Origin: an uncultured Ignavibacteria bacterium
GTDB lineage: Bacteria; Bacteroidota; Ignavibacteria; Ch128b
Reading direction: 5' to 3'
Assembly (NCBI GenBank): GCA_937944105.1
Contig: CALDZP010000034.1
Location: 111,372 to 175,371, forward strand
Length of the DNA stretch: 64,000 nucleotides
Shown: positions 1,078 through 12,471 of the stretch, piece after piece
How positions within the stretch are numbered: position 1 is the first letter of the stretch
Layout of the letters: the number at the start of each line of letters is the position of its first letter
Position numbers and translations under genes: made by a program
The notes under the pieces: generated by a model
The model's database searches: none
Told to the model about the DNA's origin: nothing
The model's input: only the letters and a program-made list of their open reading frames with translations

Positions 1078-1629
1078 ATGAAAAGAATTCTTTTATTTAC
1101 AGCAATTGGAATATTAGCAACTATTCTATTTGGTTTTAGAACTCAAGATAATCAAAAAAAACATGGTTATATTGGGGTGGATGCTTGTGTAATGTGCCAT
1201 AAGACGGAGAAACAAGGTAAACAGTTAGACATCTGGAAAAATTCTGGTCATGCAAAAGCATATCAAACCTTATTAACAGAAGAAGCTGATAAAATTGCAA
1301 AAGACAACGGTTTTGAAACTCCAGCAGCTAAAACAGAAGCTTGCTTGAAATGTCATGCATCAGGTTATGATGTAGATGCTAGTTTACTTGGTAAAAAATT
1401 TAAGATTGAAGATGGTGTTCAGTGTGAGACCTGTCATGGTCCTGGATCAGATTATAAAGATATGAAGATAATGAAAGATAGATCTTTAGCAATAAAAAAC
1501 GGATTAATAGTTTATGAAGATTATAAAGAACTTTGCGTTAAATGCCATAATTCAGAGAGCCCAACTTACAAGGAAATAAATTTCGAAGAAGCATGGGAAA
1601 AAATTAAACATCCGGTTCCTAAAAATTAA
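1078..1629 (+). CDS. tetraheme c-type cytochrome (cytochrome c554-like family), secreted
   Basis: GGAGGA Shine-Dalgarno 6-7 nt upstream of the ATG. N-terminal signal/TM helix. Four CxxCH heme motifs: CVMCH, CLKCH, CETCH, CVKCH. Confidence 0.85.
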   Translation: MKRILLFTAIGILATILFGFRTQDNQKKHGYIGVDACVMCHKTEKQGKQLDIWKNSGHAKAYQTLLTEEADKIAKDNGFETPAAKTEACLKCHASGYDVDASLLGKKFKIEDGVQCETCHGPGSDYKDMKIMKDRSLAIKNGLIVYEDYKELCVKCHNSESPTYKEINFEEAWEKIKHPVPKN

Positions 1630-1658: not shown

Positions 1659-2114
1659 ATGAATAGAGAAGAATTAGAAATGACAGCTAAAAATCTCGCA
1701 GATCTAACATTCCGTTTACTTGCCAGCTGTCATGAAAAAGAGGAAAGGTTAGCAAAATCTCATAATCTCACTCAAGCAGAATTCCGTTGCTTGAAGAGTA
1801 TGCAAGAAGGAGAAATTATTAATAACAGAGAAATTGCAAATAGACTTAGATTGAGTGCCAGTAGATTAACAAGAATTATTGATGGTCTTGTTCAAAAAGG
1901 ATTTGTTGTTCGGGAAATCGATCCAATGGATAGAAGGAATATGAGGCTTTATCTTTCACAGAAAGGCGTTGAATTTGTAAAAAAGATGAATGATGACTAC
2001 ATACTAATTCATAAGGAAATACTTGAAAATATAGAGAACGAACAACATCAGCCGCTAATAACAGCAATGACTCAACTACTTTCTGCTCTGGAAAAATGGA
2101 TTTCTAAGAGTTAG
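1659..2114 (+). CDS. MarR-family transcriptional regulator
   Basis: About 150 aa with a winged-HTH core (REIANRLRLSASRLTRIIDGLVQKGFVVREIDPMDRRNMRLYLSQKG) typical of MarR. It starts 29 nt downstream of the cytochrome gene. Confidence 0.8.
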   Translation: MNREELEMTAKNLADLTFRLLASCHEKEERLAKSHNLTQAEFRCLKSMQEGEIINNREIANRLRLSASRLTRIIDGLVQKGFVVREIDPMDRRNMRLYLSQKGVEFVKKMNDDYILIHKEILENIENEQHQPLITAMTQLLSALEKWISKS

Positions 2115-2127
2115 ATGTAAGTATCTT

Positions 2128-2164
2128 AGCGATTTCTTCTAAATTGAAGAAATCGCTTTTTTTA
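2128..2164 (+). terminator. intrinsic terminator after the MarR gene
   Basis: Perfect 12-bp stem AGCGATTTCTTC (2128-2139) / GAAGAAATCGCT (2146-2157), 6-nt loop, followed by a T7 run. Confidence 0.85.
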
Positions 2165-2254
2165 TTTAATCTACTCAATTTTGATTGGCTCTTAAGGGAA
2201 TCTTAAGTTTTTGGATCTATCTAATTTTCAAAGATTAAAATTTAATTTTTGAGA

Positions 2255-3178
2255 CTAATCTATTCCAAAAATCTCAGCAATACTTTCCTGAACATCTGAT
2301 TTGAACTCGCTTTCATATTTAGCATCAAAAACATAAGCTTTTATTTGAAATTCCAACTTTCCTCTGTCATTCAGACCTTTATAAACTATTTCAACAGGTC
2401 TGTTAATAGAATTATAAATGGAAAGAGATACTATTTCACTTAAACTTGATTTGATTTTTGAAATATCAGATCTAGGAGAAACTTCAACCACAAAACTTAC
2501 CTTCTTATTCTTTGAAATAATATTTAAATTTTCAAATGCATTTGTAATAAAGTAATAGTTTGGTATTGTAATTAAAGAATCATCTTCTGAAATAATTTCT
2601 GTCGTTCTCAAATTTTTAGCTCTGACTTTCCCAGAATAATTTCCAATTTTAATCCAGTCGCCATACTCAAATGGTTTATCCAGCAATATTAACAGTCCCC
2701 CAATTATATTTTTAGCCAGATCACTAAAAGAAATTATTGAGACAATAACTATAAAAATTAAAAAAAGTAAAAATAAAAAGATTGAAGATTTAAGTACTAA
2801 CGAGAAAATTAATGAAATTGTTAAAACCCATACTAATACATGAAGAGCAACTTTTAGTAAGTCAGCGTTTTTAAATCGCTTTGAAAAATTATATTTATTG
2901 TAAAGTATATTTATTCTATAATTAAGATAACTCATTAAAAAAACTAACAGAAGAACAAGTAATAACTTCCAGATATACAAGTTAAATTCATTAATTGATT
3001 TTTGAATTGAACCAATTAAATCGAAATATTTATTTGACCCAGTAGTTTTTTCTTGAACGATTACTCTTAGAGTTTCAACTTTAACCGAATTAGTTCCAAT
3101 GCTGTGCTGCTTGATGAGAGTATCGGGATTAATTAACTGAGTCTGTAAAAGAAAATAGATACAAGTTAGTATTTTCAT
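2255..3178 (-). CDS. MscS-family mechanosensitive ion channel
   Basis: TM helices followed by the MscS beta-domain signature GGLLILLDKPFEYGDWIKIGNYSGKVRAKNLRTTEIISEDDSLITIPN. I prefer the ATG at 3178 (MKILTC...) over the TTG at 3187 in the ORF track. That ATG sits 1 nt after the TGA of the upstream gene. Confidence 0.85.
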   Translation of the reverse strand: MKILTCIYFLLQTQLINPDTLIKQHSIGTNSVKVETLRVIVQEKTTGSNKYFDLIGSIQKSINEFNLYIWKLLLVLLLVFLMSYLNYRINILYNKYNFSKRFKNADLLKVALHVLVWVLTISLIFSLVLKSSIFLFLLFLIFIVIVSIISFSDLAKNIIGGLLILLDKPFEYGDWIKIGNYSGKVRAKNLRTTEIISEDDSLITIPNYYFITNAFENLNIISKNKKVSFVVEVSPRSDISKIKSSLSEIVSLSIYNSINRPVEIVYKGLNDRGKLEFQIKAYVFDAKYESEFKSDVQESIAEIFGID

Positions 3179-3179
3179 A

Positions 3180-6100
3180 TCAATCAAATATATGCAATTT
3201 TCTTAGTTCGATTTCAACTGGTTTATAAATTGCTGGATTAATAAAATAAATTTTTTCTCCTCTTTCATTCATATCGAATTGTATTAGGTTTGCAGAATTT
3301 AGAAAGTTTAATATGCCTTTTGATTTCTCATCATCACATTTGAATATTTCTTGGTGTTCTTTTATCGTTAAACTTCCATGTTGAATTAGATTAGAAAGAG
3401 TTAATAACATTTCAATATCGAAATTTTCAAGATACCTAAAATCTAATTTTTTAAGAGGTTTGATGTAAACGGTATCATTTTTAAAATCTTTTATTGATTT
3501 CATCCAATAAAATAGTGCAGATGTTATATTGCCTTCACATGCTTGATAAAGTTCATTAAAAAATTCTTCTTCTAGGGCTATTTGGTGATCTTGATGAAGA
3601 AGTGAGTATTTTAATTTTTTATGAACTTTATATTCCTCATCCGTAAGAAATTCTAAATTGTAACCAGAAGTTTTGTGTCGTTTTAATATAGCATCTTTAA
3701 TTTGTTCTTTAGAAAGTACTTCGGTTTTTAATTGAAAGGGGAAATAATTTCCGATATTCAAAATTCTATTTAATAGTTGCCATGCGTGGTAAGAGATTGA
3801 AACAATCCAGAAAATTTTATTACTTGTTTCTGAAATAATCAGAAGTAATTTTTTCATTGCTTCTAAGCCACCAAACTTACGAAGATAAATTTTATGTATA
3901 TCTTCAAGAATAATGATATTATACTTTGGCTCTAAATTAAGTTCGCTTATAATTTCGTCGGATGTTGCTATGTAATTCATACCAAGCATATCAGAAAGGA
4001 TTTTTAGCAATTCTTTTTCTGTAAGTATAGTTTTTTCAAAATTATATCGGTGAATATTTGTATCCGTATGGATTTTTGACAAAAAGGAACTTATCAAACT
4101 ACTTTTACCTGTTCCGCTTTCTCCAATTATTGCTGTGGAACCTGAAAGTCCTTTTTGATTTCTTTCAAAAGCCTGATTTATTAATTTTTTTTCTTTTTCT
4201 CTGCCTACAAGTATTTCTACTATTTCAGAAGATGTATAATCAAATAGTTTTTTGTAGACAAATGGTAATGAGTTATAGACTTTTTCATCGTAAACGGTCT
4301 GGTCATATAAATAAATAACTACGCTTTTCCCTTCTAAATCTACTGCAAAAAATTCTTTAACTTCTCTTACCAGTGGTTTTAAGTATCGGTTAGTTTTTCT
4401 ACTAATTAATAGATAGATCTTTTTGAAAAGAAGATAAAGTTCTTTGAGTTTATGATTAAGTTTAAGAATTAGAAACTGTGATTTGGAGATCTCTATTTGC
4501 TTTTCAAGTTTTTCGGTTAATTCTTTTCGAAAAGATTCTTTAATATTTGAAATTTGACTGTAGATTTTTTCTGTTAATGAAATTTCAACTTCTCTTTCAA
4601 ATTTTTCGACTTGCCGAGCCCAAACTTTTAATTTTTCTCGTAATAATTTTGTCGATGCTTTAAGAGTATCATCAACGATTTTTAAGATTTCTTCGTTAAC
4701 TCTGTCTTTAATTTTATCAGTTTTAAGTTTATTAAGCTCGTCAATAGCAATGTTAAAGTGATAGTAAATTACATTTTCGATGTTTTTAAGTTCGAGGATT
4801 GAGCTACTCAAATGACCGGAAATTATTTCGTTAAGCTTGATTAGTTCTTGAAGGATTTCGTTTTCGAAGTAATTTTTGATTATTTCAGGGAGATGTAATG
4901 TCTTCAACTCAATGTATTTAGTACGAGTTTCTTTTAGTTCAAAATCCTTTTCATCGAGAACTTTTATCTCTTTTTCATAATCTTTAATTATGAAATTAAA
5001 TTTATCTTTTAAAGAATTAATAATGTTTGTAATATTTTGAGTTTTTTTAATGAATGTGAGTTTACTAATACCTTTTTCGTTTAATACAAGAATTATTTCA
5101 TCACGATATTTTGAAATAAGATTTTCGATTTTTAATAAGTTCTCAAATTTTAAGAATTCTTTATTTGATATTTCTTTTTCGAAAGTTTTGAAAAGAGAGT
5201 CTAATTCTGAGATAAGATTTCTGATATGATTGTTTATCATATCAGAGTAATTAATCATTGTATCGTTAATGAGTAAATTTATTTTCCCGGTAATTTCAAA
5301 AGTACGAGCATCTCTTTCGCAAACCCCAAGAAATCCAATTAGATAGTTTACCCAGAACCTTATAGTTTCCAGTGTAGTTTCTTTAGCTTTAATTGATTCT
5401 GAATAGATCTTTGAAAAATGGAATTTTTTAATATTTAGTTCAATTGTGCCTGCTTTAAGAATTGATTTGAGAAATTGATTGAAAGGATTAGCAAATGCAT
5501 AATTAAGTCGAGTACTTATATTTTTATTCGATAATTCAATTTCTTCTCCGATAGAAGAAATTTCCTGTTTTAATCTCTCATGAATTTCATTTAATTTATC
5601 AACAGCTAACAATGAAACAGCTTCGACATCTTTGTGTTCAGCTATGAGATTAGTTAACTCTTCAAGATTTAATGTCACATCATCGTAAATTTTCTTTACT
5701 TTTCGAAGAACATTTAATCTTTCAAGTCCTAAAAGAAAAGCTACCTTTTCCATCTCAAGTGCGATTTGGTATTCAAAGTAATATTTAACTAAAGTAACAT
5801 AAGGTATTTTTCTTTTCAGGAAAGATTTAAAACCTAAGGTTTTTCTGATTTTTCTATTAATTCGTTTAATAGATTTAGAGAATTTAACTAGATAACTATC
5901 ATCAATTTCAGTTTCGTATTTATCTTTTTCCTGTTCAACTACAACAAAATCTGGAGCAGATTCGCAGTAATCTTTTAAATCATCAAATAATTTTTGAAGT
6001 AGAAATTCAGCATTTAAGATTTGTTGTTCAACTGATTTTCTTTGGATACTAACTTTTGCAAACCATTCAGAGATTTCTTGTTGAGTTAAAAGAACTTTTT

Positions 6101-7709
6101 CTTTGATTTCTTTGCCGGATATTTTGCCACTGGTAAAAATATTTTTAAGTTGTTGGTATTCATCAATGTATTTTTCAACTATTTGATAATAAAACTCGAG
6201 AGCTTCTTCGCTTCTCTTGTTAATTAAAATATTTTCAAATTCTTGAAGATGTGATATTAAGTTTTCCCTGAGAGAAATTATAAGTTCATTTAATGATTTA
6301 TCTTCAAATTGTGGAACATTGAATTTTTTATATGGTGTTATTTGCTCTGTAAATTCATATTCAATTTTTTTATCTTTTTCTGTAAATGCGCGATTCCAGG
6401 CTTTGTTGTATTTTTTAATTGCTAACTTGAATAATGCAGGTCCGAACAGAAGATTCAAGCTCACCACCGAAATAATAATTGGGAATAAGTATTCACCAAT
6501 TTGCGGGATTCGAGAAATTATAAAAATTGTTAAACCAATAACAATTGATGATTGAGATATAAAACCAAGCCATAAATTATTTTTCAGTTCGGTTTCTTTG
6601 CCCGTTATTCTAAGTGCCATTCTTGTTGAAAGAAATATAATCAGTGTTCTTACAATAAAAATGATTAGAGCAATCTGATACGTATAAACAAGTAATTTAA
6701 TGTTTAAACTTGCACCCACTATAGTAAAGAAAACGACAAAAATTAACATCGATAACTTTTCAATAGATTCAATTAACTCATCGTCAAATTTTGAGTAATT
6801 TTTTAAAACAAAACCAGTTATGATGAAAACAAGAAATGTATTTAGTTGTAGGTATTCACTTATTCTTGAGCCAATAAGGATAAACGCTAAAAGGAAAATA
6901 AATTTTTCGGATTTAATGAATTTTAAATATCCAATTGCAATTAAACCTAAAATAATTCCAAATATTATTGAAAGTAGAACTTCTTGAAGAATTGTGAAAA
7001 ACCTTAAAGAGTCAAATCCAATGCTTTGAAAATTTAATATTGAATTAGAAATACTAAAAAGAAATCCAAGTAAAATTGCAATTACAATATCTTTTATTAC
7101 AGCAGTGTTTAAAACTAATTTTGAAAGTTTACTTCTATCACCTGTTTCATTCATTACTGCGATTGTTACTGCAGGAGAAGTTTCAATCATTAATAAACTT
7201 ACTAACAGACTTAACAGAATCAAATTGTTGAAACTTATATTTTTTAAAAACTCAACTTGTGGTGAAATAATAATCAATAATAAAGTGATGATAGACAGAG
7301 TTGCAATGACTTTAAAGAGGACAATAAATGAAATTGTTCTTTTTTCAATTTTCAGATCTTTAATATTAATTTCACTACCAGCATATAATGATATTAACCC
7401 AATTGCCAATCCATTTAATAATTTTAGGTCGTTAATAGCCAAATCAGAAAAGATGCCTAAAAGTTTTGTTTTGAAAATAATATCCGAATATGGTCCAAAA
7501 ATTACTCCAGCAATTAAATAACCAATTATTTTTGGAATACCTAATAAATTTGTTAATTCACCAAAAGAAAAAGCGGCAAGTAAGATAAAACCAAGAGCAA
7601 TTAAAGTTTCAGCATGAAAATTTAAAGAATCTGAGGGCTGCAATAGTTTGAAAGCAACTATTAAAAAAATTAATAGAATGATTACTAAAAATCTTCGCAA
7701 AATGGACAT
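3180..7709 (-). CDS. 1509-aa fusion: N-terminal cation/proton-antiporter-like polytopic membrane domain, ~650-aa coiled coil, C-terminal ORC/Cdc6-type P-loop ATPase with winged-helix-like tail
   Basis: Uninterrupted 4.5-kb ORF. Residues ~1-440 are polytopic, with a Na_H_Exchanger-like start (GELTNLLGIPKIIGYLIAGVIFGP). Residues ~445-1130 are K/E/I/L-rich heptad-like sequence. Then LVGREKEKKLINQAF followed by Walker A GESGTGKSS (nt 4098-4124) and Walker B IIILEDIH (~nt 3900-3925). The C-terminal ~90 aa look like a helix-turn-helix/winged helix (LSNLIQHGSLTIKEHQEIF...ILNFLNSANLIQ). Confidence 0.75.
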   Translation of the reverse strand: MSILRRFLVIILLIFLIVAFKLLQPSDSLNFHAETLIALGFILLAAFSFGELTNLLGIPKIIGYLIAGVIFGPYSDIIFKTKLLGIFSDLAINDLKLLNGLAIGLISLYAGSEINIKDLKIEKRTISFIVLFKVIATLSIITLLLIIISPQVEFLKNISFNNLILLSLLVSLLMIETSPAVTIAVMNETGDRSKLSKLVLNTAVIKDIVIAILLGFLFSISNSILNFQSIGFDSLRFFTILQEVLLSIIFGIILGLIAIGYLKFIKSEKFIFLLAFILIGSRISEYLQLNTFLVFIITGFVLKNYSKFDDELIESIEKLSMLIFVVFFTIVGASLNIKLLVYTYQIALIIFIVRTLIIFLSTRMALRITGKETELKNNLWLGFISQSSIVIGLTIFIISRIPQIGEYLFPIIISVVSLNLLFGPALFKLAIKKYNKAWNRAFTEKDKKIEYEFTEQITPYKKFNVPQFEDKSLNELIISLRENLISHLQEFENILINKRSEEALEFYYQIVEKYIDEYQQLKNIFTSGKISGKEIKEKVLLTQQEISEWFAKVSIQRKSVEQQILNAEFLLQKLFDDLKDYCESAPDFVVVEQEKDKYETEIDDSYLVKFSKSIKRINRKIRKTLGFKSFLKRKIPYVTLVKYYFEYQIALEMEKVAFLLGLERLNVLRKVKKIYDDVTLNLEELTNLIAEHKDVEAVSLLAVDKLNEIHERLKQEISSIGEEIELSNKNISTRLNYAFANPFNQFLKSILKAGTIELNIKKFHFSKIYSESIKAKETTLETIRFWVNYLIGFLGVCERDARTFEITGKINLLINDTMINYSDMINNHIRNLISELDSLFKTFEKEISNKEFLKFENLLKIENLISKYRDEIILVLNEKGISKLTFIKKTQNITNIINSLKDKFNFIIKDYEKEIKVLDEKDFELKETRTKYIELKTLHLPEIIKNYFENEILQELIKLNEIISGHLSSSILELKNIENVIYYHFNIAIDELNKLKTDKIKDRVNEEILKIVDDTLKASTKLLREKLKVWARQVEKFEREVEISLTEKIYSQISNIKESFRKELTEKLEKQIEISKSQFLILKLNHKLKELYLLFKKIYLLISRKTNRYLKPLVREVKEFFAVDLEGKSVVIYLYDQTVYDEKVYNSLPFVYKKLFDYTSSEIVEILVGREKEKKLINQAFERNQKGLSGSTAIIGESGTGKSSLISSFLSKIHTDTNIHRYNFEKTILTEKELLKILSDMLGMNYIATSDEIISELNLEPKYNIIILEDIHKIYLRKFGGLEAMKKLLLIISETSNKIFWIVSISYHAWQLLNRILNIGNYFPFQLKTEVLSKEQIKDAILKRHKTSGYNLEFLTDEEYKVHKKLKYSLLHQDHQIALEEEFFNELYQACEGNITSALFYWMKSIKDFKNDTVYIKPLKKLDFRYLENFDIEMLLTLSNLIQHGSLTIKEHQEIFKCDDEKSKGILNFLNSANLIQFDMNERGEKIYFINPAIYKPVEIELRKLHIFD

Positions 7710-7710
7710 A

Positions 7711-8943
7711 TTATTTTATCTCGTTAAGATCTATTAATAAGTCTTTAGTAATTTTTGTAGAAAAAATTTCATTAATCAAAACCGCAAATACAATGATAGA
7801 AAAAATTGTATTGCTCAATTGATTATTGAAGATCTGTTGGTAATTGACCATTATAGCTATAGCAATAATTCCTTGAGTATTTAGTCCCTTACCAATGATT
7901 TGATTGAATTTTGTTTTATCAAAAGAAGCCTTATATGCAACCCAGCCACTGAAGTATTTTATGAAATATCTGAGGAACAAATAAGCTAAAAGTCCAAAGA
8001 TAAAAATTAGAAAATTATCAATTCTAATCAGTGCACCTGCATATATTAAAATAATGACATAGAAATGATATTCCAGTTTCTTGAAAAGTTCAATTATCAA
8101 TTCCTTTGATTTGTAGAAATTTCCAATTACAAGACCAACAATTAAATTTATGAACAATGGCGATAGATTTAAATAGTAAGCTGAACCAGAAGTAAAAATA
8201 ATAATGCCGAGAATTGCAATTAATAATTTATTCTCGTTTTCTTCACGTTCAAGAAAAATAAAAAATAAGAATCCAAGAAAAAGTCCAATAAATATACTAA
8301 CAACAAACCATTCAACTGGAGTGATTGAAATGATACCTGTAGATCCAGAATGGAATATTGAAAACATCAATCCAAGAATAAAAAGTGAGAGAAAATTGTT
8401 GAGTTTTGGAATTAAGAATAGAGTGTGAAAATTTTTTCCTTCTATTTGAAATTTATTTTTTAATGATTCCAGAACCGAATGCGAAAGAGTTGAAGATGTA
8501 ATTCCAATAATTAATGAATTAGTTAATAAACTGTTAAGGGTCATGAGATTCTTATAAAAATGTTCCATAATCAAAAAACTGATGCCACTCATTAGAAGTG
8601 TGGATAAAAAAACATCAAAGAGAGAAAGTTTAAAGTGCTCAATCGAATAATTCAAAAGATCTTTAATTCGAAATTGAAATCCCACTGAAAAGCCAACTGA
8701 ACCAAGGATTGCGGCAATTACAGGTTCAAGTTGAACAGTCCCTTCTCCAGAAAGAAGTACTGGAAGAGAAATTCCAAAATTCTTATTAATGAAATTTATA
8801 AAAGGCTCACCAATTAAAATACCAATAAAAAGAAACTCCAGTCCTGTGAAGAAGAGGAATTTTTTCTGTAACTTTTTATTTACAAAATTTAAAGAAAGAA
8901 AGCCCGCAATAACAAGCAAAATTAAAAGTAGAAATGTATCCAT
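7711..8943 (-). CDS. polytopic membrane protein, cation/proton-antiporter-like
   Basis: 410 aa, hydrophobic throughout (10 or more predicted helices by eye), with no soluble domain. Its stop is 1 nt from the ATG of the 1509-aa gene. Confidence 0.6.
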   Translation of the reverse strand: MDTFLLLILLVIAGFLSLNFVNKKLQKKFLFFTGLEFLFIGILIGEPFINFINKNFGISLPVLLSGEGTVQLEPVIAAILGSVGFSVGFQFRIKDLLNYSIEHFKLSLFDVFLSTLLMSGISFLIMEHFYKNLMTLNSLLTNSLIIGITSSTLSHSVLESLKNKFQIEGKNFHTLFLIPKLNNFLSLFILGLMFSIFHSGSTGIISITPVEWFVVSIFIGLFLGFLFFIFLEREENENKLLIAILGIIIFTSGSAYYLNLSPLFINLIVGLVIGNFYKSKELIIELFKKLEYHFYVIILIYAGALIRIDNFLIFIFGLLAYLFLRYFIKYFSGWVAYKASFDKTKFNQIIGKGLNTQGIIAIAIMVNYQQIFNNQLSNTIFSIIVFAVLINEIFSTKITKDLLIDLNEIK

Positions 8944-8991
8944 CTCTTATTTTATTTATTAAAAATCTCTACAAATATGCAAATCGTTAAA

Positions 8992-10173
8992 TTATTTTCC
9001 ATAAGGAGAGTTAAGATATTTTTTGGCGAGATAATGTGAATCACCCCAATCTTTAATAGAAAGAACATAATTATAAAATTTTATTGCCTCGTCTCTTTTA
9101 TTCATTAAATCATATACGATACCAAGATTAAGAGCTGCTGAAGTCTGAAATCCCGATTCTTCACCTTTTTTATCTATTTCTTTACATATATCTAAACATT
9201 TTTGAAAATAAAATGCTGACGAATCATACATTCCCGAAAGACGGTAATGCATTCCAATATAATAAGAGGCTTCACGCATTGCATTTTTTGTATATCCAGG
9301 TAGACTCGACTCACCCCTTCTATATACTTCCAGAAAAATTTTTGATGCGTTTTCGTAATCCCCATACTTAATGTAAGTCCTACCTAAGAAACGATGGAAA
9401 ATAGGATTCATTGGATACTGTTGATGTAATTGCAAAGCGTAGATTCGTGCCTGATAAATATCTTCTTCATAGTAATAATATAAGTTCAATAGAAAATATT
9501 TTGCTTCAGTAGATGCGAATTTAGCTTTTTCAGCGGCTGTTTTTAATTGTTGAATTCCAAGTGTTTTGTTGCCTTTAGGGAAAAAAATCATTAATGGTTT
9601 TATATATGGATATTCCTCTGGAATCACTTCGGCAAAATAGTTATAGATTCCCATGCCAAATAATATATCGTAATTGGTTGAATCTATCGACCAAGCAAGT
9701 TGAAGCAGAGGCAACGCCTCTCTTCCATCGTCGGCGGCTTTGATCCAGCTATCTCTTAAGGCTCTTAGTCTTCCTCTAAATCCAATTGCTCCACCTTTAA
9801 AGAAAATAGCATTAAGATTTTTTTCATCTTTTTTTAAGATCTGATCACAATGAAAAATTACATCTTCAAGTTTTTCAAGAAATAAGTCATCATAACTTTC
9901 GTTATCCGGATCAATGGCAATTTTCCACCAATCAATCATTGCGAGGAAAAATCTACCAGCTGGATTATGAGGGTAATCGAGCATTAGTTCTTTAAATGTA
10001 ACTTCAGCCGAATCAAATTGAATATTATAAATATATTCGATTCCTTTTTTTATTCTTGAATCAAAATCTAATGAATAATTCTGATTTTGGTCGAAAGAAT
10101 CAGGAATTATATTGATAGATGAAATTAGAATCGAATAAAACCCAAAGACGAAAATTAAAATTGCCCTTATCAT
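8992..10173 (-). CDS. TPR-repeat protein with N-terminal signal/anchor
   Basis: N-terminal hydrophobic segment, then repeated 34-aa-type A/Y/L patterns (e.g. ASYYIGMHYRLSGMYDSSAFYFQKCLDI, ALNLGIVYDLMNKRDEAIKFYNYVL). It ends 48 nt upstream of the next gene on the same strand. Confidence 0.7.
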   Translation of the reverse strand: MIRAILIFVFGFYSILISSINIIPDSFDQNQNYSLDFDSRIKKGIEYIYNIQFDSAEVTFKELMLDYPHNPAGRFFLAMIDWWKIAIDPDNESYDDLFLEKLEDVIFHCDQILKKDEKNLNAIFFKGGAIGFRGRLRALRDSWIKAADDGREALPLLQLAWSIDSTNYDILFGMGIYNYFAEVIPEEYPYIKPLMIFFPKGNKTLGIQQLKTAAEKAKFASTEAKYFLLNLYYYYEEDIYQARIYALQLHQQYPMNPIFHRFLGRTYIKYGDYENASKIFLEVYRRGESSLPGYTKNAMREASYYIGMHYRLSGMYDSSAFYFQKCLDICKEIDKKGEESGFQTSAALNLGIVYDLMNKRDEAIKFYNYVLSIKDWGDSHYLAKKYLNSPYGK

Positions 10174-10182
10174 AATAATTTA

Positions 10183-10214
10183 GGTCAGTCCGAATTTAAT
10201 TTTTCGGACTGACC
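10183..10214 (-). terminator. hairpin terminator between the lipoprotein and TPR genes
   Basis: Perfect 12-bp stem GGTCAGTCCGAA (10183-10194) / TTCGGACTGACC (10203-10214), 8-nt loop, 8 nt past the stop at 10222. The trailing sequence on the minus strand is only moderately T-rich. Confidence 0.55.
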
Positions 10215-10221
10215 ATGAAAT

Positions 10222-11115
10222 TTATTTTTTTACAACTCTAAGGTTTGTGATTGGTTGTATTTTATATTCAAACTCGGCAGTTTTATATGCATCAGTTCCA
10301 GATCCGGTTGTTCTAATATTTTTTACCCAGACTTTGACATAAATACTATCTTGAGTTTTAAGTAAATAAACATTGTCTTTAACAACAGACACAGCTGAGA
10401 GAGTAGGTTCTTCTAATCCTTCAACTAAATCAAATCCATCTTGGGCAGTTTTTGGAACAACAGCAAATTTAGTAGTTCTTGCACCTGGATAAGCAGCTTT
10501 GACATTGGGAGAATAAAATGTCAATACATTGCTTGCGGAATCAGTTCTCATGTGCAAATCAATATAAGGATAATTTGACTGACCGAATGAATATTGAGAG
10601 CCAGCACCAGTTGATGGATTCCATCCATAACCGGATTTTGCAGGGCCTGTTAATTTAAATTCATCGATCATTCCCTCACCATAAAAGACACCAGCATAAA
10701 TTACAGTTCCAAAAGGAATGCTTCGTTTGCCATCATTATTAACCGCATACACATAAGATTTGTATCTTACAAATCTTTGAATGTTTGAGATGGTTCTTTT
10801 ACGTGATTCAATTTTTGGGATAAAAACAGAATCAACTGTGTTCGTTGGTTCTCCAAGTTGATTTACAGTGTAGGTGACAACTATGTAACCCTTAAAGTCA
10901 GAGTTATCATGTTGAGGTGATTTATCCCAGCTTACAATAGCGAAGCTTTCTCCGCCGGCAATTGCGTCAACTACAACATAAACATTTGCTGGGGGATTGG
11001 GTGCTTTAGATTGTGGTGGCTCTGGTTCAGTAGATTTTGAGCAGTCAGCTGCAGTAAAGATGAAATAAATTGTAAATAAAAATAATACTAAAATTGTTTT
11101 TTTGTTTGCTTTCAT
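10222..11115 (-). CDS. hypothetical lipoprotein (beta-rich, FN3-like N-terminal part)
   Basis: Signal peptide ending in a lipobox-like FTAADC. No catalytic motif recognised. Confidence 0.6.
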   Translation of the reverse strand: MKANKKTILVLFLFTIYFIFTAADCSKSTEPEPPQSKAPNPPANVYVVVDAIAGGESFAIVSWDKSPQHDNSDFKGYIVVTYTVNQLGEPTNTVDSVFIPKIESRKRTISNIQRFVRYKSYVYAVNNDGKRSIPFGTVIYAGVFYGEGMIDEFKLTGPAKSGYGWNPSTGAGSQYSFGQSNYPYIDLHMRTDSASNVLTFYSPNVKAAYPGARTTKFAVVPKTAQDGFDLVEGLEEPTLSAVSVVKDNVYLLKTQDSIYVKVWVKNIRTTGSGTDAYKTAEFEYKIQPITNLRVVKK

Positions 11116-11130
11116 TCTAACTCCTATTAA

Positions 11131-12471
11131 TTAGTCTAACTTTTCTTTTAAAAACTCACGAATTTTATTCATATCAATTCTAATTTGTTCCATAGAATCT
11201 CTCTCTCGAATTGTAACTGTTTGATCTTGTAAAGTTTGGCTATCTACAGTTATACAATATGGAGTGCCAACTTCATCCTGTCTTCTATATCTTCTACCAA
11301 CCGCTCCTTTATCATCGTAAAATACTCTGAAGTCTCTTCTCAGGTCCTCAGTAATTTTACGAGCAATTTCAGGCATGCCATCTCTATTGACTAATGGGAA
11401 TATGCCTACCTTAATTGGTGCGAGTTTTTGATGTAATCTTAAAACAACTCGCTTTTCACCTCGGACTTCTTCTTCGTGGTAAGCGTCAATTAAAAAAGTC
11501 ATAAAGCTTCGACTTGCACCAGCAGAAGTTTCAATAATGTAGGGGATATATTTTTCGTTTATTTCATCATCAAAGTAATCTAATGCTTTCCCTGAATAAT
11601 TTGTATGTTGAGTTAAGTCAAAATTAGTTCGATTATGTATACCTTCAATTTCACCCCAACCGAAAGGGAATTCATATTCAATATCTACGGCAGCTTTTGC
11701 ATAATGTGCAAGTTTATCTTCTGGGTGAGGAGAAAATCTTAATTTTTCTTTTTTAAGTCCAAGCTCAATAAACCATTTCAATCTCTCTTCTTTCCAGTAT
11801 TCAAACCATTTCATATCATCACCTGGACGTACAAAGTATTGCATCTCCATTTGTTCGAATTCACGAGTTCTGAATAAAAAGTTTTTTGTGTTGATTTCAT
11901 TCCTGAATGCTTTACCAATTTGAGCAATCCCAAATGGAATTTTTTGTCTTGAAGAATTTAGAACATTTAAAAAATTAACGAAAATACCTTGAGCAGTTTC
12001 AGGTCGCAAATAAACAATAGCTGCATCTTCTTCCACAGGTCCGATAAAAGTTTTGAACATTAAGTTAAATTGTCGTGGTTCTGTGAATTTCCCTTCTTCC
12101 TGACACTTTATTGCTTTTCGACCTTTATAGGCTGGATTACCACACATTGCATCTTCCAATTGATCAGCACGGAAGCGAGCTTTACATTCTTTACAATCGA
12201 CCATCGGATCAGTAAAATTTGCCACATGTCCCGAAGCTTCCCAGACTTTTGGATGCATTAGAATTGCCGCATCAATTCCTTCTATATCTTCCCTGAAAGT
12301 CATTGACTGCCACCACTCACGTTTAATATTATTTAATAATTCTACTCCAAGTGGTCCATAGTCCCAGCATCCATTAAGTCCGCCATAAATTTCCGATGAC
12401 TGAAAAACAAAACCTCTTCTTTTTGCAAGAGAAACAATAGTTTCAAGAGATATATTCAAGCTTACCTCCAA
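11131..12471 (-). CDS. glyQS: glycine--tRNA ligase (homodimeric class II type)
   Basis: Characteristic N-terminus RRGFVFQSSEIYGGLNGCWDYGPLGVELLNNIKREWW, class II core motifs, and a C-terminal anticodon-binding region (PIKVGIFPL). Confidence 0.93.
   Translation of the reverse strand: MEVSLNISLETIVSLAKRRGFVFQSSEIYGGLNGCWDYGPLGVELLNNIKREWWQSMTFREDIEGIDAAILMHPKVWEASGHVANFTDPMVDCKECKARFRADQLEDAMCGNPAYKGRKAIKCQEEGKFTEPRQFNLMFKTFIGPVEEDAAIVYLRPETAQGIFVNFLNVLNSSRQKIPFGIAQIGKAFRNEINTKNFLFRTREFEQMEMQYFVRPGDDMKWFEYWKEERLKWFIELGLKKEKLRFSPHPEDKLAHYAKAAVDIEYEFPFGWGEIEGIHNRTNFDLTQHTNYSGKALDYFDDEINEKYIPYIIETSAGASRSFMTFLIDAYHEEEVRGEKRVVLRLHQKLAPIKVGIFPLVNRDGMPEIARKITEDLRRDFRVFYDDKGAVGRRYRRQDEVGTPYCITVDSQTLQDQTVTIRERDSMEQIRIDMNKIREFLKEKLD

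Follow-up and report, generated by a model that had tools for sequence, protein, structure and literature searches.

An exchanger-like membrane domain joined through a long-helix domain to an Orc1/Cdc6-like AAA+ domain, encoded beside an MscS-family channel in an uncultured Ignavibacteria bacterium

The glutathione-gated K+/H+ exchangers KefC and KefB (CPA2, TC 2.A.37) carry a cytoplasmic nucleotide-binding regulatory module, a C-terminal KTN/RCK domain, after the last transmembrane (TM) helix, and have a partner in the same operon, the quinone-oxidoreductase ancillary subunit KefF or KefG. In the TrkA-TrkH K+ uptake system, gating depends on the binding of ATP or ADP by TrkA, a cytoplasmic RCK protein. 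Among CPA1 exchangers, plant SOS1/NHX7 and sperm SLC9C1 continue from the exchanger domain into several hundred residues of helical or regulatory sequence, and MscK, which is K+-dependent, and MscM are MscS-type channels enlarged by a regulatory extension at the N terminus. Here we describe a 1509-residue protein encoded in a 64,000-nucleotide stretch of DNA from an uncultured Ignavibacteria bacterium (contig CALDZP010000034.1, positions 111,372 to 175,371; hereafter the window). In this protein an exchanger-like membrane domain (N) is followed by a duplicated long-helix domain (M) and an Orc1/Cdc6-like AAA+ domain (C), and its gene lies between those for a smaller N-domain paralog and an MscS-family channel. 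We propose, at about even confidence, that the operon encodes a nucleotide-regulated membrane ion-flux complex for K+/osmotic homeostasis.

The 1509-residue protein shares with KefC and KefB a homologous transporter fold in which D207 falls on the KefC residue D156, unwound TM5/TM12-type signatures, a cytoplasmic nucleotide-binding module beyond the final TM helix and an operon partner. It differs from them in that ~700 residues of helical domain and an AAA+/winged-helix unit stand in place of the KTN/RCK domain, in the K-D motif found where KefC has Q-D, and in the identity of the partner, which is a degenerate cation:proton antiporter (CPA) paralog rather than a quinone oxidoreductase. TrkA-TrkH shows that adenine nucleotides can gate K+ flux by way of a cytoplasmic subunit, and its genes are linked to many of the loci described below, but the folds are unrelated (RCK Rossmann ring versus AAA+/winged helix) and Trk is not fused to its regulator. 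The regulatory regions of SOS1/NHX7 and SLC9C1 are CNBD-like or voltage-sensor in type, eukaryotic and without an operon partner, whereas here the regulatory region ends in an AAA+ domain. The third gene of the operon resembles MscK and MscM in its MscS pore and β-domain; unlike in those channels, the added regulatory part is encoded separately, as an AAA+ protein. No account of the N+M+C architecture or of its gene cluster turned up in literature searches, in keeping with an earlier note on this DNA, made from the letters alone, which knew of no described protein of this kind.

Domain organization of the 1509-residue protein

The protein is encoded by a single uninterrupted open reading frame (ORF) with an ATG start, stop codon included (Table 1), as the earlier note had read it. 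The G+C content of the window is ~27%, at which stop codons are common by chance, so that an open frame of 4.5 kb is far above random expectation. Twenty-three full-length relatives (1480-1509 residues, 23-73% identity) lie on independent contigs, and 345 species-representative genomes, among them Melioribacter isolates and some complete chromosomes, proved to hold relatives in a genome scan; Ignavibacteriota, the Melioribacter isolates, Chlorobiota, Acidobacteriota, Myxococcota and Balneolales are all represented. The M-domain profile alone, searched against 1.84 billion representative proteins, matched 413 clusters (50% identity) at E <=1e-3 and 221 at E <=1e-10, and most of the M-containing clusters are 1450-1600 residues long with M at approximately residues 440-1130. 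Because the ~1500-residue architecture recurs on many independent contigs and on complete chromosomes, the ORF is not an assembly artefact, and the architecture is real and old. The motifs quoted in the earlier note were likewise all found, with GELTNLLGIPKIIGYLIAGVIFGP at residues 50-73 and LVGREKE, Walker A and Walker B in the C-terminal part.

Public annotation labels the protein 'cation:proton antiporter', 'KefB' or 'KefB/GTPase SAR1', and the first two of these pipeline labels are what speaks for an ordinary Kef-type antiporter with an unimportant C-terminal extension, or else for a mis-assembled join. We consider this the least probable of the explanations weighed here. Conservation in M and C is no lower than in the transporter domain, M+C also stands as a gene of its own, and the joining of separate genes by assembly error, which the earlier note had named as a possible flaw, is contradicted by the presence of the fusion on hundreds of independent contigs and in complete genomes.

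Several related records depart from the intact gene. A protein from a 'Candidatus Omnitrophica' metagenome-assembled genome (MAG) annotated as RNA polymerase beta' (P0032) is 97% identical over its first 121 residues to residues 4-124 of the big ORF (window 7338..7700), which suggests that the assembly or the gene call is chimeric there. In two Ignavibacteriales/Bacteroidota MAGs (L036, 4980..9519; L059, 4962..9480) the big gene is split into one ORF with N and the start of M and another with M+C, a division that could be natural or stem from frameshifts in sequencing; the small paralog of L036 is divided as well.

The N domain is placed in the CPA superfamily by Pfam, in which Na_H_Exchanger (PF00999) matches residues 48-427 with an E value of 3e-19 (69.6 bits against a gathering cut-off of 26.2) over profile positions 7-374 of 375. 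Membrane segments extend only to approximately residue 426 in a hydropathy scan, with no hydrophobic segment beyond. Alignment of the N-domain profile with Escherichia coli KefC by hhalign positions D207 on D156 and K206 on Q155. In the cryo-EM structure of KefC, D156 is the strictly conserved K+-binding Asp, and the Q155-D156 pair is the K+-type equivalent of the motifs, D-D and N-D, found in Na+/H+ exchangers (PMC11150392). Among 17 relatives K206 is invariant, while residue 207 is Asp in 15 and Glu in the other 2. The unwound-helix signatures TSPAxT and SQS are also conserved, and R354 is near-invariant; R354 lies one helical turn from KefC K307 by hand alignment only, a tentative equivalence, the hhalign alignment having ended before that helix. 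The idea that the TM11 lysine of KefC is replaced by Ser proved wrong, as K307 sits on a later helix, to which R354 would tentatively belong.

With D207 kept and the unwound-helix signatures and R354 conserved, the transporter core looks competent, despite its unfamiliar K-D motif. The earlier reading of this region as a Kef/CPA-type antiporter domain is thus upheld by Pfam and by the KefC profile alignment. We nevertheless do not file the N domain as a member of the KefB/KefC family, because it scores below the CPA2 cut-off, has neither a Q-D nor a D-D motif, and is not followed by an RCK domain: a Pfam search of the 1509-residue protein for KTN/RCK domains gave no TrkA_N or TrkA_C match at E values up to 0.1. 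Against PDB sequences, an N-domain profile built from five sequences gave nothing at E values up to 0.01, and the best PDB sequence match to the N domain in a profile search was SOS1 (E 1.9e-5).

The M domain is rich in K, L, E and I (13, 13, 12 and 11.5%) and shows amphipathic helical periodicity relative to shuffled sequences (z 4.8 at 3.5 residues and 5.8 at 3.6). An AlphaFold2 model built from a 22-sequence alignment (pLDDT 84, pTM 0.74) contains approximately ten long helices of 35-83 residues, with short turns between them, and four short strands; from the secondary-structure string and the pTM, the helices are predicted to pair as hairpins packed in bundles. When the first half of M was aligned with the second by hhalign, the two matched with a probability of 93% (E 3e-7, 240 columns), and this match indicates that M is a tandem duplication of a module of ~300 residues. 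The earlier description of a continuous heptad coiled coil thus stands as far as the K/L/E/I-rich composition and the amphipathic periodicity are concerned, but the region is not one continuous coil, being made up of two homologous halves of helices.

Mean column identity per 50-residue block is 0.55-0.74 over most of M compared with 0.50-0.68 in the membrane domain, and only the last M block (residues 1051-1100) falls to 0.41. Conserved, confidently modeled and internally duplicated, M is best read as a functional folded domain and not a spacer. A Foldseek search of the M model against the PDB returned nothing better than E 0.4, and its best matches, to a chemoreceptor and a bacterial dynamin, were of low probability. 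The M profile matched PDB sequences only compositionally, through coiled coils (apolipoprotein A-IV, the ClpB M-domain and haemagglutinin HA2). No Pfam family falls within the M span. M is accordingly left unassigned among known folds, and it is possibly a new one.

The C domain is composed of an AAA+ base, a lid and a winged helix, and its AlphaFold model (pLDDT 85, pTM 0.82) exhibits clear similarity to replication initiators. The top 20 Foldseek matches in the PDB are all ORC/Cdc6 subunits (E 4e-10 to 1e-7), which bears out the earlier assignment of an ORC/Cdc6-type AAA+ ATPase with lid and winged-helix tail. Archaeal Orc1/Cdc6 structures lead the list, with 2v1u_A (E 4e-10) followed by 2qby_A/B, 1fnn_A and 1w5t, all aligned over the full length of the model (E 4e-10 to 5e-9, TM-score 0.43-0.50 for this set); eukaryotic ORC/Cdc6 subunits are interleaved among the top 20, and RuvB, the 'archaeal ATPase' PAB2304, Apaf-1 and ClpX appear lower down. 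In Pfam only generic models match: AAA_16 at residues 1167-1224 is above its gathering score (E 4e-8), AAA_22, nSTAND1 and other P-loop models are below threshold (nSTAND1 at 17.1 bits against a cut-off of 27.1), and Cdc6_C gave no match. A profile search of PDB sequences found Cdc6 (7jgr_G) at E 0.006 only, together with a weak match to the MarR-type protein YusO, and one relative (P0110) has a weak MarR_2 match.

Residues typical of this class are also observed in the family alignment. These include a conserved lead-in, LPF(V/I)Y(K/R)(K/R)LFD...LVGRE; the Walker A motif G-x-x-G-x-G-K-[ST]; and the lid box G-N-x-x-x-A-L. The lid G-N pair and R1344-H1345, at the sensor-2 position, are invariant in the aligned relatives. 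Like archaeal Orc1/Cdc6 and eukaryotic ORC/Cdc6, the C domain is built from a base, a lid and a winged helix and carries the lead-in (LF..x..LVGRE), both Walker motifs, the G(D/N)xxxAL lid box and the sensor-2 Arg, but it shares only 10-15% identity with the initiators and has no conserved Arg at the ORC arginine-finger position of the family alignment. Its catalytic residues are degenerate in some lineages. Both Walker motifs are intact in the window protein; within the family the second acidic residue of Walker B varies between D, N and G, the first is lost in one relative (P0030), and the Walker A Lys is lost in another (P0024). This patchy conservation suggests a nucleotide-binding switch rather than a processive motor. 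Unlike the initiators, the C module is fused to a transporter, and its genetic linkage is with ion channels rather than with replication genes.

The structures nearest to the C domain come from DNA-bound Orc1/Cdc6 proteins, with alignments that cover the winged helix, and together with the weak MarR-type matches to YusO and in P0110 they allow for a membrane-tethered DNA-binding regulator, in which the AAA+/winged-helix unit would couple a sensed ion status to transcription (of trk, for example) or to chromosome or replication control. We regard this as improbable. Some 700 residues of rigid helical domain would stand between the membrane and the winged helix, the alignment lacks a conserved Arg finger or an initiator-type oligomerisation signature, and Cdc6_C is not matched. 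In addition, M+C is obligately paired with an MscS-like gene and some relatives have a K+ channel instead of C, both of which point to ion conduction rather than gene control.

Operon structure, Trk linkage and variant architectures

The big gene is preceded by the gene for a 410-residue membrane protein (gene 1) and followed by the MscS-family gene (gene 3; Table 1), a setting that the earlier note had not noticed, nor the Trk linkage and variant architectures described below. A single nucleotide separates the gene 1 stop codon from the ATG of the big ORF, and the TTG start of gene 3 overlaps the big-ORF stop codon by 8 nucleotides, though an ATG at 3178, one nucleotide after the stop, is the likely start. 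We scanned 86 related loci with hidden Markov models of our own, judging the triad where the contig extends far enough, and the order small paralog, N+M+C, MscS-like gene is nearly universal. With their one-nucleotide spacers or overlaps and this near-universal triad, the three genes form one operon.

The gene 1 product aligns over its full length with the N-domain profile (hhalign probability 99.5%, E 2.8e-22, 369 columns) and has N-N at the K206-D207 position, and hence no ion-binding Asp. The gene 3 product has a signal-like N terminus and three TM segments ahead of the β-domain. It matches MS_channel_2nd (PF00924) at residues 156-222 with 77.4 bits against a cut-off of 20.2 (E 9e-22), and the NCBIfam MscK, MscS and MscM models are its best similarities in that collection, all below their cut-offs; it is a genuine member of the MscS family.

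At 60 of the 86 loci, adjacent TrkH and TrkA genes run in the same orientation, in two gene orders. Ignavibacteriales, Melioribacter and Chlorobiota have small-big-MscS-TrkH-TrkA, and Myxococcota and Acidobacteriota have small-TrkA-TrkH-big-MscS. That distant phyla differ in the arrangement speaks for selection having acted on the linkage, not for synteny kept by descent.

The domains also occur in other combinations. M+C without N is found as proteins of ~1000-1125 residues, and on a complete Gracilimonas chromosome an M+C protein (1008 residues) and an MscS-like gene form a two-gene unit among housekeeping neighbors. Conversely, pairs of the small paralog with an N-only protein, without M+C, occur in Calditrichaceae, Balneolales, Spirochaetales and Gemmatimonas. 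In some relatives N+M is fused to a Kv-type channel (Ion_trans, Ion_trans_2; TVGFGD filter) instead of C, and the two such loci examined (L006 and L056) have no MscS gene downstream. One variant is a CarboxypepD_reg-M-C protein. A 2083-residue protein with N, M, AAA_16 and MscS regions (P0128) was rejected as a true fusion; its residues ~1400-1850 are rich in R, A, G and P, typical of an out-of-frame reading of high-GC DNA, and it is probably a frameshift or read-through artefact. The combinations indicate that the system consists of a CPA-like pair and a separable M+C/MscS pair, which the N-M fusion joins in most lineages, whereas in a minority a K+ channel replaces the ATPase-plus-MscS end.

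Since M+C with MscS exists without any CPA domain, the core of the system might instead be M+C and the MscS-like channel, with M+C acting as a cytoplasmic gatekeeper or assembly factor and N and its paralog serving mainly as an anchor or scaffold without transport. The missing ion-binding Asp of the small paralog, the unusual K-D motif and the position of N far below the CPA2 equivalog cut-off all fit such an arrangement. We consider it unlikely, because residue 207 is Asp or Glu throughout and is accompanied by the TSPA.T and SQS signatures and the near-invariant R354, and because other phyla retain the small and N-only pairs in the absence of M+C, an argument for an independent function of the pair. 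The arrangement also overlaps with the ion-flux complex proposed here and does not exclude it.

The AAA_16 match and the weak nSTAND1 match, along with the fact that membrane-depolarising effectors are common in defence systems, could be taken to suggest an anti-phage or abortive-infection system, in which a STAND/AAA_16 sensor would trigger ion leakage through transporter and channel effectors. The context makes this very improbable. A search of all three operon proteins against PADLOC-DB gave no match at E values up to 0.1, and no homologue was found in 72,556 plasmids or 50,697 phage records. The triad has a housekeeping synteny (glyS and a TPR gene) and a tight trkAH linkage over several phyla, and in the model the protein ends at the winged helix, with no C-terminal sensor repeat array. 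The defence and nucleic-acid-responsive functions entertained in the earlier note find no support, given the same lack of PADLOC matches and of plasmid or phage copies and the same syntenic context.

Upstream of the triad, minus-strand positions 8992..12471 hold a glycyl-tRNA synthetase-like gene, a lipoprotein-like ORF and a TPR protein gene (Table 1), and the same gene order is found at 919..4409 of L001, the locus of a relative at 47% identity. The TPR gene ends only 48 nucleotides before the small paralog and may belong to the same transcript as the triad. In the Myxococcota version of the cluster (L005 741..1940 and the Myxococcota loci L039-L086) a further gene of ~400 codons, without a Pfam match, lies just upstream of the small paralog. 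At the other end, a hairpin with a 12-bp stem and T-runs stands between the end of a plus-strand ORF (2114) and the end of the MscS-like gene (2255), and is plausible as a bidirectional terminator marking the end of the operon. A promoter and terminator scan of 2000-10400 gave a promoter count no better than in shuffled sequences. Of the two plus-strand ORFs beyond the hairpin, the 183-residue one starts with a signal-like segment, contains four CxxCH motifs (CVMCH, CLKCH, CETCH and CVKCH) and resembles a small multihaem c-type cytochrome; the 151-residue one comes after it.

Table 1 Features of the locus, in window coordinates (residue numbers refer to the 1509-residue protein)
Feature	Residues	Position	Strand	Basis or description
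Gene 1, 410-residue membrane protein, N-domain paralog		7711..8943	minus	ORF; weak Pfam Na_H_Exchanger match, E 1.5e-8
Gene 2, 1509-residue fusion N+M+C		3180..7709	minus	ORF, Pfam, relatives
N domain	1-435	6405..7709	minus	signal-like hydrophobic N-terminal helix, then CPA2/Kef-like transporter fold
K206-D207 motif	206-207	7089..7094	minus	at the KefC Q155-D156 / NapA D156-D157 ion-binding position
M domain	445-1135	4305..6377	minus	all-α, predicted long helical hairpins and four short strands; AlphaFold2 model
M repeat 1	465-757	5439..6317	minus	hhalign, half against half
M repeat 2	758-1125	4335..5438	minus	hhalign, half against half
C domain	1145-1509	3183..4277	minus	Orc1/Cdc6-like AAA+: base, lid, winged helix
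Walker A GESGTGKS (K1202)		4101..4124	minus	motif alignment
Walker B strand IIILED (E1269-D1270)		3900..3917	minus	motif alignment
Winged-helix module	1425-1509	3183..3437	minus	model secondary structure; full-length Foldseek alignments to Orc1/Cdc6
Gene 3, MscS-family channel, 310 residues from TTG at 3187		2255..3187	minus	Pfam MS_channel_2nd
TPR protein gene		8992..10173	minus	
297-residue lipoprotein-like ORF		10222..11115	minus	
Glycyl-tRNA synthetase-like gene		11131..12471	minus	
Hairpin		2128..2157		12-bp stem, T-runs
183-residue ORF		1078..1629	plus	signal-like N terminus, four CxxCH motifs
151-residue ORF		1659..2114	plus	

A putative nucleotide-regulated ion-flux complex

The proposed complex would be built around a Kef-like (CPA2-type) cation/proton exchanger, the N domain, with D207 as its essential ion-binding Asp and K+ as its presumed substrate. 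N and the Asp-less 410-residue paralog would probably form a heterodimer of one active and one scaffold protomer. The duplicated long-helix M domain is predicted to extend the exchanger rigidly on the cytoplasmic side and to hold C at its end, where C would serve as a nucleotide-binding switch and not as a motor. The ATP/ADP state of C, transmitted through M, would then set the activity of both the exchanger and the co-encoded MscS-like channel, so that regulation would run from nucleotide to ion flux and M+C would take the role that KTN/RCK domains have in KefC and TrkA. The MscS-like channel is included as a partner, presumably in physical contact with M+C, because M+C keeps MscS even where the exchanger domain is absent. 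The earlier guess of an ATP-gated ion conduit is compatible with the present findings.

Several observations weigh against this reading. The match of N to the NCBIfam CPA2 model TIGR00932 is partial and well below its cut-off (44.3 bits against 238.3). We know of no characterised CPA with a Lys beside the ion-binding Asp, and the K-D motif could change cation exchange or abolish it. The evidence for contact between M+C and MscS, and for the heterodimer of the small paralog with N, consists of gene order and translational coupling, and the sole apparent fusion of the big protein with MscS (P0128) looks like a frameshift artefact. The symmetries are mismatched, as CPA proteins form dimers, MscS forms heptamers and AAA+ proteins form oligomers of their own. 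The adjacent Trk genes have been lost in the Ignavibacterium clade to which the window itself belongs (L001 and L007-L015), and no Trk genes were found in the 64-kb window. Finally, winged helices of the Orc1/Cdc6 type usually bind DNA, and the proposal leaves this feature of the C domain unexplained.

In the strongest form of the proposal, the family would be a new class of ion-transport regulator, in which the AAA+ switch, joined through a duplicated long-helix fold not seen before, would directly gate both a heterodimeric Kef-like exchanger and a dedicated MscS channel within a supercomplex that sets K+ and turgor together with TrkAH. We put this form forward only tentatively and hold it to be doubtful. 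In its more general form, the locus would encode a regulated CPA exchanger/MscS system that carries an unprecedented regulatory module.

Possible implications for K+ and turgor control

If the strongest form of the proposal is correct, no earlier case would exist in which an AAA+ ATPase gates a secondary transporter or a mechanosensitive channel as its gating domain. Bacterial K+ and turgor control is now explained by RCK/KTN domains, cyclic di-AMP, glutathione adducts and membrane tension. To these regulators the 1509-residue family would add an AAA+ nucleotide switch that a domain of ~700 residues, without a significant PDB or Pfam match, connects to both an exchanger and a mechanosensitive channel. 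The K-D pair found in place of Q-D or D-D, together with the Asp-less paralog, amounts to a natural experiment on the working of ion sites and dimers in CPA proteins. Although the family is widespread across phyla that include Ignavibacteriota, Myxococcota and Acidobacteriota, pipelines label it merely 'cation:proton antiporter'. Its cultured members, the Melioribacter isolates, make it directly testable.

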